This document shows, piece by piece, positions 1 through 53,188 of a DNA stretch of 53,188 nucleotides; position 1 is the first letter of the stretch; every line of letters starts with the position of its first letter. The notes under the pieces are model-generated. The model was given only the letters and a program-made list of their open reading frames with translations. It was not told where the DNA came from and did no database searches. Source of the DNA: an uncultured Gammaproteobacteria bacterium (lineage in GTDB: Bacteria; Patescibacteriota; Patescibacteriia; SBBC01; CAIJZX01); the NCBI GenBank assembly GCA_964518425.1, contig CAZFGG010000006.1:1-53188 (forward strand), given 5' to 3'. Position numbers and translations under genes: made by a program.

Positions 1-105
1 GAGCGGCGGGGTCACACCTGTTCCCATTCCGAACACAGCCGTTAAGCCCGCCAGCGCCGATGATACTACGATGCATGTCGTGGGGAAAGTAGGCCAGTGC
101 CCGGT
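1..105 (+). rRNA. rrf: 5S rRNA (5' end truncated by the window edge)
   Basis: Conserved 5S motifs CACCTGTTCCCATTCCGAACACAG, GTTAAGC, GCGCCGATGATACT and GGGAAAGTAGG; 3' end approximate. Confidence 0.95.
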
Positions 106-1162: not shown

Positions 1163-1933
1163 ATGGTACGAAAAACTCGCGGCGGCTACGTCGTCTTCTC
1201 ACACAAAACTGGCAAACGACTGGGCCGGGTGTATAAAACCAAAACCGAAGCCACGAAGCGCCTTCGGCAAATTCAGTTTTTAAGTACGGTGGAAAAAAAT
1301 GAATTTCAAGTGCCCAGACCCAGCCATACATTGAATCCAGGTCGTCTCAGTATGCGCCTCAACACCCCGCTGAAAGTTCAACGTTGGTTGAAATCCCTCG
1401 ACTACAACCACGACGAGACAATGCACACGCTCCACGGGGTTACCCGACGCGAACAAGCCCATTGCCTTGAGGGCGCGCTGTCCGCCGCGGCGCTACTCGA
1501 ACCGCAAGGATATCCGCCACTCATTCTCGACCTTGAATCCGTCGGCCCGCTTGACCACACCGTTTTTCTTTTCAAACGGAAGGGTCGCTGGGGTAGCGTC
1601 GGCATGTCTCATGATATCGGCCTCCATGGCCGCCGGCCGGTATTTCGTAGTGTTGAAGCTTTAGTAAAAAGTTACATCATCCCCTACATCGATCACCAAT
1701 CCCACCTGACCGGTTGGGGCGTTTTGGATTTACGGACGCTGAAAAAAGATGATTGGCGAGATTCGAAGAAAAGCGTTTGGTATGTCGAGCGAGCCCTGCA
1801 ACATATGCCCCATCACCGACTACATACATCTCCCGTGGTGATCAAGCGCTGGCGCGAACGCTACAAACGCTTTCACAAAAAATACCCACGTAGACAGCCA
1901 GATTATTTTCCCAATCAGTACCAGTGGATGTAA
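1163..1933 (+). CDS. Putative transglutaminase/papain-like protein with a short basic N-terminal module
   Basis: AHCLEGALSAAA (Cys) and LDHTVFLF (His) resemble a transglutaminase-like catalytic core; TGcTACACT lies 6 nt upstream of the ATG. Confidence 0.65.
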   Translation: MVRKTRGGYVVFSHKTGKRLGRVYKTKTEATKRLRQIQFLSTVEKNEFQVPRPSHTLNPGRLSMRLNTPLKVQRWLKSLDYNHDETMHTLHGVTRREQAHCLEGALSAAALLEPQGYPPLILDLESVGPLDHTVFLFKRKGRWGSVGMSHDIGLHGRRPVFRSVEALVKSYIIPYIDHQSHLTGWGVLDLRTLKKDDWRDSKKSVWYVERALQHMPHHRLHTSPVVIKRWRERYKRFHKKYPRRQPDYFPNQYQWM

Positions 1934-1981
1934 TGACTGCCCGTCATTCTTGGCTTGTCAGTTACGATAGCTTTTTCAAAG

Positions 1982-2017
1982 AAAAAAATTAGGCGGGCTC
2001 CCCGAAGGTCGCCCGCC
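1982..2017 (-). terminator. Intrinsic terminator
   Basis: Minus strand GGCGGGC-GACC-TTCG-GGGA-GCCCGCC-TAATTTTTTT. Confidence 0.75.
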
Positions 2018-2117
2018 ATGTGTGGACGTGCCAGGTCCGTGAAGCGTCCGGTGAGCTAGCCATGAGTCGCTCAATGCCCCTCCATGGATCAATGACGTAC
2101 ATCCGGACCGGTACAGC
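1982..2117 (-). ncRNA. Candidate ~135-nt structured small RNA, family not recognised
   Basis: Minus-strand TTGCTT (2153-2148)-N18-TAGTAT (2129-2124); long irregular hairpin; ends in a UUCG-capped GC stem plus U-run. Confidence 0.45.
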
Positions 2118-2342
2118 CTGTGCATACTACCGTAAAATACTGAGAACAAGCAAATTCATGAGAAGTCAATTGGTAAGGAATGATCGAATAAATTGTCTCT
2201 TATCGTATGGTCAGAAAGACTCACGGCGGTTACGCCGTCTTCTCCCACAAAACCGGTAAGCGTTTAGGTCGTGTCTACAAAACGAAAGCGGAGGCAACAA
2301 AACGGCTTCGGCAGATACAGTTTTTCAAGTATCGGGGAAAGT

Positions 2343-2372
2343 AAAAAAGCGGATCCGGTGGTCTGGATCCGC
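2343..2372 (-). terminator. Intrinsic terminator of the 2378-2983 gene
   Basis: Minus strand GCGGATCCAG-ACCA-CCGGATCCGC-TTTTTT just after the stop codon. Confidence 0.8.
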
Positions 2373-2377
2373 TCATG

Positions 2378-2983
2378 CTACTTTTTCAGTGATTCCTCGA
2401 TCTGCCGATCAAAATCGGCGGCCGTTGATTTCAAGATTCGCCAATTGATGAATGTGCTTGTTTGCGGCTGACGAGCATTGAGGAAAGCGAAGATGAACTG
2501 AACGAGATTCGTGCCATTCTTCACTTGACGGTGCTCATCTTTCGCCTCCGGATCGGCGGCGTCTTCTATCGCCACCGATTCGAGGAGAGAAGCTACCTTG
2601 AGGTACAGCACTTTGCTATCTTCACGATAGATGGCGGGCGAACCGAATTCTCGATTTGCCTCTTCCTCGTCGCGCCGCTCCTGCTCTAGGTCAGCCTGAC
2701 TGAAGACTTTGGGGACCCGCCCAAGCGATTGTTTGCTAGCCATCTGAGCAGCGTTAGAAATCGCCTCCATCATGCCCACCCGCCGGGCCAAGGGCCAATC
2801 AGGCTCAAGAATGCGAATGCGACGGAGAAGATCCCAGCATGAGCATTGCTCGAGCACGGGCACGATCAGCGCATACAGCTCGTCAGGCGGCACCGGTTCG
2901 TATGGGTTCGGTGGGAAGGCGGTCTCAAAGACGTAGTCGATGAGCTCGTCCCGTAACGTTTTGTATCTCGACGTCACCGGCAC
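2378..2983 (-). CDS. Hypothetical protein (acidic, probably helical)
   Basis: 201-aa ORF, GTG start preceded by AAGGAGGT, followed by a terminator; no family recognised. Confidence 0.7.
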   Translation of the reverse strand: MPVTSRYKTLRDELIDYVFETAFPPNPYEPVPPDELYALIVPVLEQCSCWDLLRRIRILEPDWPLARRVGMMEAISNAAQMASKQSLGRVPKVFSQADLEQERRDEEEANREFGSPAIYREDSKVLYLKVASLLESVAIEDAADPEAKDEHRQVKNGTNLVQFIFAFLNARQPQTSTFINWRILKSTAADFDRQIEESLKK

Positions 2984-3107
2984 GTTAACCTCCTTCGTTA
3001 GAGAAAAAAATCAGAGTTGGAACGTACGATGAAAGAATTCCCGTCACTCTTACCACGGCTTTGTCCCTTTGTCAATCCAGCTCAAGATGTCTGGTATACT
3101 ATTTCCT

Positions 3108-4391
3108 ATGCGCCTCTTCGCCGATCTCCACGTCCATTCCAAATTCAGCCGCGCTGTGTCACAGGACATGGACATTCCGCACATCGACCACTGGGCCAAG
3201 ATCAAAGGCATCGGCCTCATGGGCACTGGTGATTTTACTCATCCGCAATGGTTCGCTTCGCTGAAACGCGACCTGGTCGAAGATGGATCGGGTTTCTTGC
3301 AGCGAAAAGATTCTCCGGAACACACGAAGTTCGTGCTCTCCGCCGAGATTTCTTGTATTTACAGTAAGGGCGGTAAGACGCGGCGTATACACTTGATTGT
3401 TCTCGCCCCCGACTTTGCGACAGTTGAGAAAATAAACGCTTACCTTAACCTCATCGGAAATTTGAAATCTGACGGCCGGCCAATCCTTGGTCTCGACGCC
3501 GAAGAACTGACAAAAATCGTGATGGACGCCAATCCGAAGAATATGGTTATCCCTGCGCACGCCTGGACACCGTGGTTTTCGCTGTTTGGTTCGATGTCCG
3601 GCTTCGACAGTGTTGAAGAGTGCTTTGGGTCAATGACAAAACATATTTACGCATTGGAAACAGGGCTGTCCTCAGACCCGGCCATGAACTGGCGTTTATC
3701 GCAACTCGACCGGATCGCTATCACCTCGTATTCCGACGCCCATTCACCTAAACCAAACAAAATGGGGCGAGAAGCCACTGAGTTTGAGTTGGTTGAACCA
3801 ACCTTTGATAATCTCGCCGAAGCGCTAAAAAGCCAATCGATGATCGTTGATGGACAACAACCAAAGAATACCATTGCTTCAACCGTGGAGTTCTTTCCTG
3901 AAGAAGGAAAGTATCACTGGGATGGTCATCGGGAACACAACATCCGCTGGTCACCGGAAGAATCGAAGGAACATAAAAATATTTGCCCGATCTGCGGCCG
4001 GCCGGTCACGATCGGCGTGGAGAACCGTGTTGAACAACTGGCTGACCGGCCGGCCGATTATAAACCAACGAACCGCCCACCGTTCACGAAGATGGTCCCC
4101 TTGGAAGAAATAATTGCTGAAGCGGTTGGCACAAAGCCCGGCACGAAAAAAGTTAGTGCCGTGTATGAGCGTTTGTCTAGGCAAGCTCCAGAATTCGATA
4201 TTCTCTTGAAGTTCTCTCCGAGCGAACTCGCCGCCCTCGGCGAGCCGCGAGTAGCTGAAGGTATTGAACGAGTCCGACAAGGCAAGCTCGATATTGTCCC
4301 CGGTTATGACGGAGTGTACGGAACGGTCCATATTTTTTCCAGTCGCGAACCTACGTCTAAAGCGAGCACACCTCAAGCAAGGCTATTCTAG
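3108..4391 (+). CDS. Endonuclease Q-like PHP-domain protein (TIGR00375 family)
   Basis: Motifs DLHVHS, GTGD, PAHAWTPW, ETGLSSD, SDAHS, GKYHWDGHR, CPICG, PGYDGVYG; start moved to ATG 3108 after TGgTATACT. Confidence 0.85.
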   Translation: MRLFADLHVHSKFSRAVSQDMDIPHIDHWAKIKGIGLMGTGDFTHPQWFASLKRDLVEDGSGFLQRKDSPEHTKFVLSAEISCIYSKGGKTRRIHLIVLAPDFATVEKINAYLNLIGNLKSDGRPILGLDAEELTKIVMDANPKNMVIPAHAWTPWFSLFGSMSGFDSVEECFGSMTKHIYALETGLSSDPAMNWRLSQLDRIAITSYSDAHSPKPNKMGREATEFELVEPTFDNLAEALKSQSMIVDGQQPKNTIASTVEFFPEEGKYHWDGHREHNIRWSPEESKEHKNICPICGRPVTIGVENRVEQLADRPADYKPTNRPPFTKMVPLEEIIAEAVGTKPGTKKVSAVYERLSRQAPEFDILLKFSPSELAALGEPRVAEGIERVRQGKLDIVPGYDGVYGTVHIFSSREPTSKASTPQARLF

Positions 4392-4395
4392 CATC

Positions 4396-4932
4396 ATGAT
4401 CTTACCGTTTCTTTTTTTATTTCTGGCTGGCACAATTGTTGCCACCATTTTTAGTTTGAACGCCCTGGTCAACACCTTACGATTCGGTCTGCCATACGTC
4501 ACGACGCCGCACTGGGCTATTGACTGGTTAGTACACTATCTCGAGCTCAAGTCGACTGATATTGTTTGCGAGCTTGGTTGCGGTGACGCGCGAGTGTTGG
4601 CGGCGCTCGCCAGAAAACACCCGGGCGTAAAGTTTATCGGCCTGGAAATCCAATGGTGGCCATTCCTTCTAGCCAAATGGCGGACGAGAAATCTGAAGAA
4701 TGCTACGATTCGACTGCAAAACTTTCTCACGGCCGATCTGTCTGGCGTGACAATATTTTATGGCTTCTTCATTACCGTCATCATGCCGAAAGTGGCTGAC
4801 AAGCTGGCCAAGCATTTACAGCACGGCGCACAGCTCATTTCCTTCGGTTTTGCCTTACCGGGGCATACGTCTACAAAAGAAATTTCCTCACCGACGGGGC
4901 GGGGAAGCAAAATCCGGTTTTACAGCAACTAG
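4396..4932 (+). CDS. Class I SAM-dependent methyltransferase with N-terminal membrane helix
   Basis: LPYVTTP and ELGCGDAR (motif I), GLEIQ; start reassigned to ATG 4396. Confidence 0.85.
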   Translation: MILPFLFLFLAGTIVATIFSLNALVNTLRFGLPYVTTPHWAIDWLVHYLELKSTDIVCELGCGDARVLAALARKHPGVKFIGLEIQWWPFLLAKWRTRNLKNATIRLQNFLTADLSGVTIFYGFFITVIMPKVADKLAKHLQHGAQLISFGFALPGHTSTKEISSPTGRGSKIRFYSN

Positions 4933-4939
4933 ATTCTGT

Positions 4940-5264
4940 CGGAGGAGGTGACCCCGTAAACCGCTTTGCGGTGCGGGGCAAGGATTCGAACCCACCAGGT
5001 CCTTTCGGGTCTGCAGCTTTTCTCAGCCCGAATCAAAAATCTCCACTTGGCGGAGGCGGAAGGATTCGAACCTTCGATACCCTTACGGATATACTGGTTT
5101 TCGAAACCAGCGCGTTCGACCACTCTGCCACGCCTCCATCAGGCACAGACTTTGAACAAATCATTGTCAGAGAACATTTTTTGGTACGGGGAGCCGTGCT
5201 TTCATCCGGGTCGCTCGTGGCGACCCATCTCGCTTTCTAGCTCGACCCACTCAGCCACTCCTCC
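4940..5264 (-). pseudogene. tRNA-Ser-like gene interrupted by three insertions (functional status unknown)
   Basis: Acceptor GGAGGAG (5264-5258)/CTCCTCC-G (4947-4940); D arm GCTGAGTGG..GAAAGC; anticodon stem CGGCT (5196-5192)/AGCTG (5018-5014); long variable arm; T arm GTGGG-TTCGAAT-CC[insert]CAC. Confidence 0.7.
5048..5137 (-). tRNA. tRNA-Ser (anticodon CGA)
   Basis: 90-nt cloverleaf: GGAGGCG/CGCCTCC, anticodon arm CTGGT-TTCGAAA-ACCAG, long variable arm, GGTTCGAATCC, GCCA end. Confidence 0.97.
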
Positions 5265-5275
5265 ATACCGCGAAG

Positions 5276-5304
5276 ACTGTACGTGTTTTCGCTGAAAAAA
5301 TCAA
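5276..5304 (-). promoter_or_regulatory. Sigma70-type promoter of the nested tRNA locus
   Basis: TTGATT (5304-5299)-N17-TACAGT (5281-5276), 11 nt upstream of GGAGGAG at 5264. Confidence 0.65.
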
Positions 5305-5660
5305 GTCACCAGCTTTCTGCGGATGGTGAGAACAACCCACCGCCCAACCAGCAAACCAACTGATCCAATCACCAGGTCGCCGAATGAATTCAGTTTTGTC
5401 TCCGGAGCGAAACCAAAATTATTCACGGCGATCTTAAATCCAGCAATGACCTCATGGTGGTGGACATCGAGATACTGCGTGGTCCGTTCATACACCTCCC
5501 AGAGAAAAAGTATCCCAATACACAGCCACCAAAAAACCTTCCGCCGTCTCGTCGGTGGCCACCAAGCCGCGATGAGACCAATGAGCGTTCCGCTCATAAA
5601 GTGAATGCCGGACCATGGCCAATCGAACATCGCAATGTTGATGCTACCAAAAAGTTGCAT
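5301..5660 (-). CDS. Small hypothetical membrane protein
   Basis: 119 aa, three hydrophobic segments, motifs HFMSG, WEVYE and NSFGD; TGgTATGAT 6 nt upstream. Confidence 0.75.
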   Translation of the reverse strand: MQLFGSINIAMFDWPWSGIHFMSGTLIGLIAAWWPPTRRRKVFWWLCIGILFLWEVYERTTQYLDVHHHEVIAGFKIAVNNFGFAPETKLNSFGDLVIGSVGLLVGRWVVLTIRRKLVT

Positions 5661-53113: not shown

Positions 53114-53188
53114 TGGTAGCCCCACGGGGAATCGAACCCCGATTACCGGCTTGAAAAGCCGATGTCCTAACCGTTAGACGATGAGGCC
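53114..53188 (-). tRNA. tRNA-Glu (anticodon TTC)
   Basis: 75-nt cloverleaf GGCCTCA...TCGGC-TTTTCAA-GCCGG...GGTTCGATTCC...TGGGGCT-ACCA. Confidence 0.96.

Follow-up and report, generated by a model that had tools for sequence, protein, structure and literature searches.

Group I introns occur in the anticodon loops of bacterial transfer RNA (tRNA) genes, and bacteria also harbour small non-autonomous hairpin or inverted-repeat elements, among them the repetitive extragenic palindromic (REP) sequences and bacterial interspersed mosaic elements (BIMEs), miniature inverted-repeat transposable elements (MITEs) and palindromic elements derived from IS200/IS605. Integrases reportedly have sublocation preferences at tRNA genes, as Williams is said to have set out in 2002. 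In the tRNA-dependent lysogeny of actinobacteriophages, the parts of the report that deal with integration describe an incoming element that disrupts a host tRNA gene, which is not rebuilt and is replaced by a tRNA of matching isotype (Guerrero-Bustamante and Hatfull, mBio 2024, PMC10865867); that element is a whole temperate phage with a tyrosine integrase and a core of ~10 bp (PMC10865867). For archaea and red algae, the sections on disrupted tRNAs in three reviews describe genes with multiple non-canonical introns as well as split and permuted genes, processed through bulge-helix-bulge motifs (PMC4090602, PMC4033280, PMC3978253). Here we describe a nested tRNA locus in a 53,188-nucleotide (nt) stretch of DNA, the window hereafter, which is positions 1 to 53,188 of contig CAZFGG010000006.1 (NCBI GenBank assembly GCA_964518425.1), deposited as an uncultured Gammaproteobacteria bacterium and placed by GTDB in the Patescibacteriota. 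On its minus strand, four pieces of a tRNA-Ser at 5264-4940 surround an intact tRNA-Ser(CGA) at 5137-5048.

This locus is an old, decayed example of a family of small tRNA-bearing cassettes, and it is probably the scar of a tRNA gene replacement. The former resident had the acceptor GGAGGAG and, most likely, Ser(CGA) identity. In the course of events that we envisage, a resident tRNA-Ser behind a conserved promoter would have received, in the middle of its anticodon loop, a small non-coding cassette consisting of a hairpin with arms CCCCGCACC(A)n and (T)nGGTGCGGGG, then TCGAGA, and carrying a complete tRNA-Ser(CGA) in its loop. The insertion would destroy the resident gene, and the resident promoter would transcribe the tRNA of the cassette, from which the outer 5' pieces would be removed by RNase P as a leader of 127 nt. 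Thereafter the defunct outer copy would decay and gain hairpin inserts in its D loop and T arm, the one in the T arm belonging to the CCCCGCACC family. We infer both the insertion at the DNA level and this order of events; the outer promoter now most likely drives the inner tRNA.

As far as the passages cited above describe it, the likeness to tRNA-dependent lysogeny is that the host tRNA is destroyed and a replacement of the same kind supplied; unlike the phages, the cassette is shorter than 200 nt, non-coding and integrase-free, it places the new tRNA inside the old one and behind the old promoter, and its insertions form stacked layers. The archaeal and red-algal genes, as portrayed in those sections, share with our loci the short inserts in the D, anticodon and T regions, up to three per gene, and, in young nests, a 4-bp helix between the junctions; they differ in that here the host is bacterial, EndA and RtcB were not found, interrupted copies decay and the insert carries a whole tRNA. 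That the host is a bacterium follows from the long variable arm of its tRNA-Tyr. Like REP sequences and MITEs, the cassette family consists of short non-coding hairpins with a conserved arm, with 2-14 copies in relatives and solo copies after stop codons, but it prefers tRNA loops, can hold a tRNA in its own loop, shows neither target-site duplication nor a link to Y1 transposase genes and is low in copy number in the genome of the window. A group I intron is likewise an anticodon-loop insert, from which the cassette differs in having no ribozyme core (no Rfam Intron_gpI match). As for genomic islands, tRNA loci are hot spots and island-like cargo stands at two of the nests, yet islands leave direct repeats of the 3' part only, whereas the nests hold 5' and 3' halves in mirror order around an intact gene. 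Neither nested tRNA genes nor tRNA genes interrupted by hairpins turned up, for Patescibacteria or for other bacteria, in the full-text literature searched; the bulk of subscription journals, along with supplements, lay outside that scope, so an earlier mention is possible.

Anatomy of the nested locus

In what follows, G000 is the genome of the window, other G numbers are the genomes and L numbers the loci compared. The features of the locus are as follows.

5304-5299 and 5281-5276, minus strand: putative outer-gene promoter, TTGATT, 17 nt, TACAGT, 11 nt before the outer +1 (sequence)
5264-5243, minus strand: outer piece 1, acceptor 5' strand GGAGGAG, TG, start of the D arm up to GGGTCG (sequence; spliced alignment to the GGAGGAG-type tRNA-Ser(CGA) of L011)
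5242-5203, minus strand: D-loop insert, 40 nt (5246-5205, 42 nt, in the initial annotation and in the script boundaries)
5202-5192, minus strand: outer piece 2, D-arm 3' side AAAGC, A, anticodon-stem 5' strand CGGCT (comparison with intact outers L061, L021 and L069)
5191-5021, minus strand: type A tRNA cassette, decayed, 171 nt including its tail (script boundaries; comparison with intact copies)
5191-5177, minus strand: cassette left arm, CCCCGTACCAAAAAA
5176-5138, minus strand: cassette left spacer, 39 nt
5137-5048, minus strand: inner tRNA-Ser(CGA) with encoded CCA (ARAGORN; Rfam RF00005, 56.4 bits)
5055-5031, minus strand: terminator-like hairpin and T run directly 3' of the inner tRNA, stem 5055-5041, then ATTTTTGATT (consensus match only)
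5047-5040, minus strand: cassette right spacer
5039-5027, minus strand: cassette right arm, TTTTTGATTCGGG
5026-5021, minus strand: cassette tail CTGAGA (TCGAGA in intact copies)
5020-4982, minus strand: outer piece 3, AA, anticodon-stem 3' strand AGCTG, variable arm, T-stem 5' strand, T loop (sequence; comparison with L011)
4981-4951, minus strand: T-arm insert, 31 nt, a small hairpin of the CCCCGCACC family (script boundaries; hairpin regular expression)
4950-4940, minus strand: outer piece 4, T-stem end CAC, acceptor 3' strand CTCCTCC, discriminator G, then ACA (sequence)

The initial annotation had seen an intact tRNA-Ser(CGA) nested in an interrupted tRNA-Ser, and the anatomy, ARAGORN, the RF00005 score and spliced alignment all bear this out. 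With the inner copy masked, the flanks score 119-120 of 180 against the intact tRNA-Ser(CGA) of L011, as compared with 23-67 at un-nested loci (the choice of un-nested controls was our own judgement, and all tRNAs were masked in the extended set). The inner tRNA is the sole Ser(CGA) gene that ARAGORN finds in G000 and is 96-98% identical to the tRNA-Ser(CGA) of G003, G006, G008, G010 and G012. Around it, the outer 3' end CACCTCCTCCG (4950-4940) completes an acceptor stem that is perfect, as first read, in 7 of 7 pairs; the minimum-free-energy fold of the whole region keeps this stem and does not keep the cassette helix. Without its tail the middle insert measures 165 nt (5191-5027), and the T run of the putative terminator belongs to the cassette right arm.

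The smaller inserts have counterparts elsewhere. The D-loop insert, which contains the hairpin GGGTCGC/GCGACCC at 5226-5208, resembles an insert at the same D-loop place upstream of tRNA-Ser(TGA) in G005 (L030), and inserts like the one in the T arm stand at the same T-arm place in G019 (L012), G035 (L016), L067 and L073. Two CCCCG(C/T)ACC-type inserts of the locus belong to a hairpin family that recurs in relatives.

The outer promoter had also been proposed from the sequence. A consensus promoter scan does not call TTGATT-N17-TACAGT, but the hexamers are present, and a motif cTTGATTTTTT..TACA(A/C)T stands at the same 11-nt distance from the un-nested tRNA-Ser(CGA) of G001 (L014) and G005 (L007). 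In G001, a member of the same genus, a plain tRNA-Ser(CGA) follows the same upstream gene and the same promoter at 11 nt, and the outer 5' end of G000 therefore occupies the place of the resident gene. No promoter was called within the G000 cassette, including its 39-nt spacer, by the consensus scan. In most cassettes only 8-12 nt separate the left arm from the inner tRNA, a gap that leaves no room for a promoter, so that the inner tRNA would have to be read from the outer one.

Contiguity of the locus

The window stems from a metagenome-assembled genome, and assemblers break at the 31-mers repeated in T arms (loose ends at 5046-5078), which is what would lend substance to an assembly artefact or a chance resemblance. 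However, a single 687-nt Logan contig of run X1, possibly the source sample, spans 4721-5407 with 0 differences, and in a second sample, X2, contigs covering 4700-5076 and 5048-5500, again with 0 differences, support both halves and overlap only within the T arm common to tRNAs. The same architecture recurs in many other assemblies, and the spliced-alignment score lies far above that of un-nested controls. The contiguity of the locus is not an assembly error, and we give an artefact of either sort practically no probability. Among RNA data sets none is listed for 4700-5500, and run X22, which we guess to be RNA, matches only the shared tRNA part 5046-5137, from other organisms.

The contig itself begins inside a 5S rRNA gene (window 1-105) and ends with a tRNA-Glu(TTC) (53114-53188); with both ends in RNA genes, the assembly probably breaks at repeats.

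The outer copy is a decayed relic

The four loop bases expected after the outer CGGCT, bases 32-35, are absent from G000, whereas the 5' halves of the intact outers L061, L021 and L069 end in CTTG or CTCG. The variable-arm stem of the outer copy has 2 mismatches, as against full pairing in L011, and the cassette has aged too, with 11 of 13 positions paired between its arms and CTGAGA instead of TCGAGA as its tail. When the three inserts were sliced out by script, ARAGORN called a 90-nt 'tRNA-???' with the 4-base anticodon (gaga), that is, the 8-nt loop described at the outset and no valid anticodon. That loop, CTGAGAAA, had been placed one base from Ser GGA, a reading that falls because it consists of the decayed cassette tail plus AA; the closest intact homologue of the outer copy is a Ser(CGA) gene, not a GGA one. 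The outer copy encodes no CCA, as had been noted, G73 being followed by ACA (3' end GACA instead of GCCA), and 43 of the 46 tRNAs that ARAGORN finds in G000 do encode it. In place, neither ARAGORN nor Rfam calls the outer tRNA; both report the inner one only.

G000 is a 982-kb genome, 100% complete, with relatives that are all ~1 Mb. The genome-wide search for a Ser(GGA) tRNA that had been recommended found intact Ser genes with the anticodons GGA, TGA, GCT and CGA, the last being the inner tRNA. These cover the function of the outer copy, which is therefore redundant. The outer copy of G000 is a decayed relic, a tRNA pseudogene. The initial annotation had offered a pseudogene hit by palindromic elements, one of which captured a tRNA; its first part holds, given the degenerate outer copy, the intact Ser genes elsewhere and the hairpin family in relatives, but to speak of capture understates cassettes that are recurrent and organised.

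No close relative of G000 has the same nest, so constraint on the outer copy could be observed in other pairs only. Between L074 and L073, a single pair with small numbers, the inner tRNA differs at 1 of 89 positions and the outer at 6 of 88, with a 71-nt indel in addition, and between L065 and L067 a 41-nt hairpin is present in one outer T loop and absent from the other.

Cassette architecture and insertion site

The core helix, in which C(C/A)CCGCACCA pairs with TGGTGCGGG(G), is common to two cassette variants. Type A, the kind found in G000, reads CCCCGCACC(A)n, spacer, tRNA, spacer, (T)nGGTGCGGGG and then TCGAGA; its CCCCGCACC/GGTGCGGGG helix brackets a usually promoter-less tRNA of the resident's kind. 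Intact type A copies of the form CCCCGCACCAAA..tRNA..TTTGGTGCGGGG TCGAGA stand at L002, L011, L056, L061, L063, L065, L068, L069, L071 and L073, and in L002, L061 and L068 the arms are perfect over 13-14 bp. In type D, TCACCGCA.. is followed by 4-5 bases complementary to the discriminator and the positions after it, which extends the inner acceptor stem to a helix of ~20 bp; beyond the tRNA lie the other arm and an additional hairpin, CCCGCC..GGCGGG, which covaries (CCCGGC/GCCGGG in L021). Cassettes are non-coding and 130-170 nt long, the G000 copy having 171 nt, of which 90 nt are the inner tRNA.

In the well-preserved nests L021, L024, L025, L026, L061, L069 and L073, insertion falls between anticodon bases 35 and 36 (CTTG or CTCG | AAA). 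Elsewhere the cassette occupies the D loop (L009, L015) or the T loop (L068), an empty type D hairpin without a tRNA occupies the D loop of the middle tRNA of L002, and small hairpins of the cassette family are found in the D and T regions of many outers.

Nests in related genomes

Among 21 genomes of the order, Kerfeldbacteria-like Patescibacteria, at least 11 carry tRNA-Ser(CGA)/(TGA) nests or remnants, a lower bound in that not every tRNA-Ser locus of the 21 was read, and a count in which kin genomes are not independent; the advice to look for the locus in related genomes was thereby rewarded. In eight genomes (G000, G004, G007, G008, G010, G011, G015 and G017) there are nests whose spliced-alignment score reaches 89 or more, with 20 or more matched bases on each side and the intact tRNA contained in one insert, and in three more (G005, G019 and G020) they were judged by eye. 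Two to five layers are stacked in L002, L024, L025, L038 and L068, several layer assignments having been made by eye, and ARAGORN calls the innermost copy only in every multi-layer nest.

A 19-mer from the right end of the cassette was found in 8 genome stretches, including records labelled Kerfeld-, Uhr- and Moranbacteria; of these, 5 were examined (the other three are known contigs of G010 and G007), and an intact tRNA-Ser lies directly upstream in 4 of them. Metagenomes gave 12 further stretches with the 19-mer, and 10 of the 11 examined are tRNA-Ser nests (L064 is the same contig as L060). The identical 19-mer is thus met across classes of the phylum, around quite different inner tRNAs. 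A related 15-mer, GGTGCGGGGTCGAGA, was present in 0 of 401 sampled genomes of the phylum by exact match, which misses decayed copies such as that of G000. The sporadic and patchy distribution of the two words fits horizontal spread.

In five young nests the inner and outer tRNAs are 67-80% identical and differ by paired stem changes, and the inner tRNAs of G015, G010, G008, G004 and G020 group together across families and anticodons, apart from the outers. In the young nests of relatives, the inner tRNA is imported and not copied in place from the outer one. This bears on a purely local origin, in which tandem copies of tRNA-Ser were partly deleted and gene-converted and no mobile element took part. 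Such an origin gains some credit from the mosaic nature of these genes, the G001 gene sharing its acceptor and T arm with the G000 inner tRNA and differing elsewhere, and from the tandem arrangement in which Ser(TGA) and Ser(GCT) do stand. Yet a tandem array that suffered deletions would be left with direct flanks and not with inverted ones, inner tRNAs that are unrelated to one another are bracketed by identical helix and tail sequences across different classes of the phylum, the changes between inner and outer copies are paired stem changes, and the cassette ends have in part been seen around other tRNA kinds as well (Arg, Asp, Gly and Pro). We consider rearrangement of this sort highly improbable.

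The anticodons follow a pattern. In 8 of 8 cases (two of them close relatives) an outer with the anticodon TGA encloses a TGA inner, and CGA outers enclose CGA inners or, in two instances, TGA ones (at L024 and in the outermost layer of L025). This would be expected if the cell can dispense with Ser(CGA) but not with Ser(UGA). A Ser(CGA) query matched nothing in G014, G017 and G020 but Ser(TGA)-like sequences of 74-79% identity, and these genomes appear to be without an intact Ser(CGA) gene.

A separate conserved element of ~110 nt follows tRNA-Ser in G006, G012, G010 and G007 (L004, L006, L021 and L022), comprising AYACAATCTTTTATCGGAG .., a GC-rich hairpin and a T run; it has no Rfam match at the gathering score and may be a small RNA with its terminator.

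Splicing and the fate of outer copies

The inserts could instead be a new bacterial tRNA intron, the precursor being cut and rejoined so that, in young nests at any rate, the outer sequence becomes a tRNA as well as the inner one. The two copies do lie on one strand behind one promoter, and the outers of L015, L021, L061 and L063 are fully intact, with minimum-free-energy folds in the form of nested cloverleaves. The tail CGAG pairs with bases 32-35 (CTCG, or CTTG with one G-U), setting the junctions across a 4-bp helix in a topology reminiscent of a bulge-helix-bulge, and, irrespective of loop sequence, Ser and Gly nests have their insert midway along the anticodon loop and Arg, Asp and Pro nests have it close to that place. 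The machinery known from other systems was not found, however: EndA (PF01974) is found in 0 of 6 genomes (G000, G004, G010, G015, G017 and G020) by a search that was positive in 4 control archaea, and RtcB (PF01139) in 0 of 5 (G000 and 4 other nest genomes). Splicing could not repair most outers, which have non-complementary anticodon stems (L069, L065), lost 3' halves (L058, L066) or mismatched acceptors (L009, L026), and outers change faster than inners. In the loci read, small hairpin inserts were seen only in already interrupted copies and never in a sole working gene. Neither does Rfam give an intron or ribozyme match at 4800-5400 (E up to 10) or, at the gathering score, anywhere in the window.

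In detail, too, the fold of L074 runs from the anticodon stem through a bulge of 4 nt, a helix of 4-5 bp and a bulge of 1 nt to a long helix and does not have two 3-nt bulges separated by 4 bp, and archaeal-type splicing is unsupported. In G000 the outer copy is without half of its anticodon loop and the pairing partner for a bulge-helix-bulge is deleted. The earlier suggestion of a processing route yielding two tRNAs from one nested precursor finds no support at this locus, where the 5' side of the loop is lost and EndA and RtcB were not found. We regard splicing as an improbable account of the nests, and return to replacement by a cassette.

The hairpin repeat and nests of other tRNA kinds

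The hairpin CCGCACC..GGTGCGG is repeated in several genomes, with 14 copies in G004, 8 in G020, 6 each in G007 and G017 and 2 in G010 (reversed control, 0-1). Tracing these copies gave nests of further tRNA kinds, located as follows.

L097, G004:C6:52300-53300; L099, G004:C1:790400-791200; L100, G004:C1:154300-155200: loci of the nests of tRNA-Arg(CCG), tRNA-Asp(GTC) and tRNA-Gly(TCC) in G004
L098, G020:C15:10100-11500: nest of tRNA-Pro(GGG) in G020

Their spliced alignments score 63-77, compared with a maximum of 44-54 for shuffled queries. Inner and outer anticodons are the same, a helix extending the inner acceptor stem brackets the inner tRNA, and the older outer copies also hold CCCCGCACC-type hairpins. 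The cassette lies mid-anticodon loop, at TTTC|CAA in the Gly nest, at ~33/34 in the Asp nest and ambiguously within 34-36 in the Arg nest; in the Pro nest the inner tRNA comes after the anticodon arm, and a small hairpin occupies the anticodon loop. A sequence-specific target, T(T/C)G^AAA, is ruled out by the Gly (TTTC|CAA), Asp and Pro nests. The target is therefore defined by position within a loop of the cloverleaf and not by a particular DNA sequence.

The Ser(CGA) nest is the only one seen in G000, and CCCCG[CT]ACC has 12 hits there, about the chance level. Other CCCG..CGGG hairpins of G000 stand at C8:35975, C12:22226 and C15:22311. The one at G000:C12:22226-22258 is a solo, perfect family hairpin (CCCGCACCA..TGGTGCGGG) that lies 5 nt after the stop codon of an open reading frame (ORF).

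Integrases and cargo at the nests

Repeated integration and loss of islands by a tyrosine integrase at tRNA-Ser, with the fragments left as attachment-site copies, would be another source of tRNA pieces. In G004 a gene for a 282-amino-acid (aa) tyrosine recombinase ends ~40 nt from the nest 3' end and is followed by cargo genes; G007 holds a 2.7-kb segment between direct repeats, each made up of a tRNA-Ser 3' half and a cassette end; and arrays of 3' halves lie downstream of some nests (L022, L025). But an integrase crossover duplicates the 3' part of a tRNA, and gives neither 5' halves upstream in mirror order nor a helix tipped by a whole tRNA. The two junctions show no duplicated loop bases, an integrase adjoins the nest at the G004 locus only, among ~76 loci, and the single Xer-like recombinase of G000 is on another contig, with none adjoining the nest. 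We therefore hold island debris to be unlikely, if the least unlikely of the alternatives weighed here, and continue with the cassette.

The G007 segment (L041, G007:C1:5500-12037, ~1818-4730) encodes a GFO/IDH/MocA oxidoreductase, an FMN reductase and an HxlR regulator and has 62-nt inverted repeats; no mobility gene was found within it. Given this island-like cargo, nests are also landing places for larger cargo. The G004 recombinase is a second Xer-like one (L076, G004:C5, 5590-6438), followed by a GNAT acetyltransferase and six ORFs without a Pfam family, and the last tRNA 3' piece at L076 fits a GGTGGGA-type acceptor, not the outer GGAGGAG.

Mechanism and significance

How a cassette reaches its site is a matter for speculation. 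A tRNA gene exposed as single-stranded DNA might receive it by structure-guided insertion, and under heavy transcription the non-template strand of such a gene could form the cloverleaf that serves as target; we favour this because the targets are cloverleaf loops in several tRNA kinds. The cassette family appears to be undescribed. More tentatively, and short of calling it probable, we propose that Patescibacteria harbour undescribed promoter-less cassettes, each with its tRNA crowning a conserved helix, that enter the loops of cognate resident tRNA genes, chiefly mid-anticodon, by structure-guided insertion (single-stranded DNA or RNA), take over the promoter and build stacked nests, and that young outers may be matured by a splicing reaction free of EndA and RtcB.

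Several observations weigh against replacement by a mobile cassette. No mobility gene, be it transposase, integrase or other, is common to the flanks of 24 nest loci, where an all-against-all comparison of frames gave only housekeeping neighbours and spurious frames over tRNAs. Y1 transposase homologues occur in 7 of 11 nest genomes and 5 of 10 others, and reverse transcriptases in 5 of 11 and 5 of 10, with no association in either case. A filled and an empty version of one and the same site was not found for any tRNA-carrying cassette, the junctions (..TTG|cassette|AAA..) show no repeated bases and hence no target-site duplication, and the 19-mer was not found in viral contigs. In G000 the hairpin motif is not repeated beyond the locus and 1-3 other hairpins, and gives no sign of activity. 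The fully intact outers of L015, L021, L061 and L063 fold as a spliced intron would, and the use of the outer promoter and of the terminator is predicted from motifs.

Regarding candidate enzymes, Y1_Tnp has no match in G000 in a search that covered this transposase family. G010 (L046-L053), G017, G019 and G020 have several Y1-transposase-like genes, a true IS200 TnpA in G010:C76 and numerous ORFs of 130-250 aa that are RAYT-like; the ends of IS200 in G010 were considered as a source of the cassette and bear no resemblance to it. Reverse transcriptase genes of ~340-360 aa are present in about half of the order.

In symbiont genomes of ~1 Mb, tRNA genes are single-copy and essential, and their turnover is hard to see. 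The nests would record successive replacements, each layer being an older resident, so that the history of horizontal tRNA exchange within the Candidate Phyla Radiation could be read from them; if our interpretation is true, tRNA genes are here replaced horizontally by a new route. Should the cassettes be mobile, they would be selfish elements that survive by carrying the function they destroy, a logic that to our knowledge has so far been seen only in whole phages. That loops are preferred in several tRNA kinds suggests an enzyme able to recognise the shape of a tRNA in nucleic acid, and this could be of interest to those who study recombinases and RNA processing. For annotation, standard tRNA finders report the innermost gene only, and remnants may be mis-annotated as ORFs, spurious frames covering them in fact.

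Neighbouring genes and other tRNAs of G000

A 222-aa ORF with a weak match to Methyltransf_4 (TrmB-like) occupies window 4264-4932 on the plus strand, convergent with the nest, and ends 8 nt from the outer 3' end. Together with a 440-aa ORF (3069-4391) it is a kept neighbour of tRNA-Ser(CGA) in G019, G015 and L056, and the 440-aa ORF also in G040.

Among the other tRNAs of G000 that were inspected, a 93-nt Arg(tcg) call is a poor fold, and Glu(ctc) and Arg(gcg) are normal. At G000:C10:23623-23696 (minus strand) ARAGORN calls a 74-nt tRNA with the anticodon TCA, labelled SeC, which scores 43.5 bits in Rfam and has anticodon-stem mismatches; the ~130 nt directly upstream hold a long tRNA-like sequence, called by no tool, whose T arm is GAAGGTTCGAATCCTTC. 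This region could be a true tRNA-Sec or another disrupted tRNA. Finally, G000:C23:2096-2172 is a tRNA-Ile with the anticodon TAT, which is unusual in bacteria.

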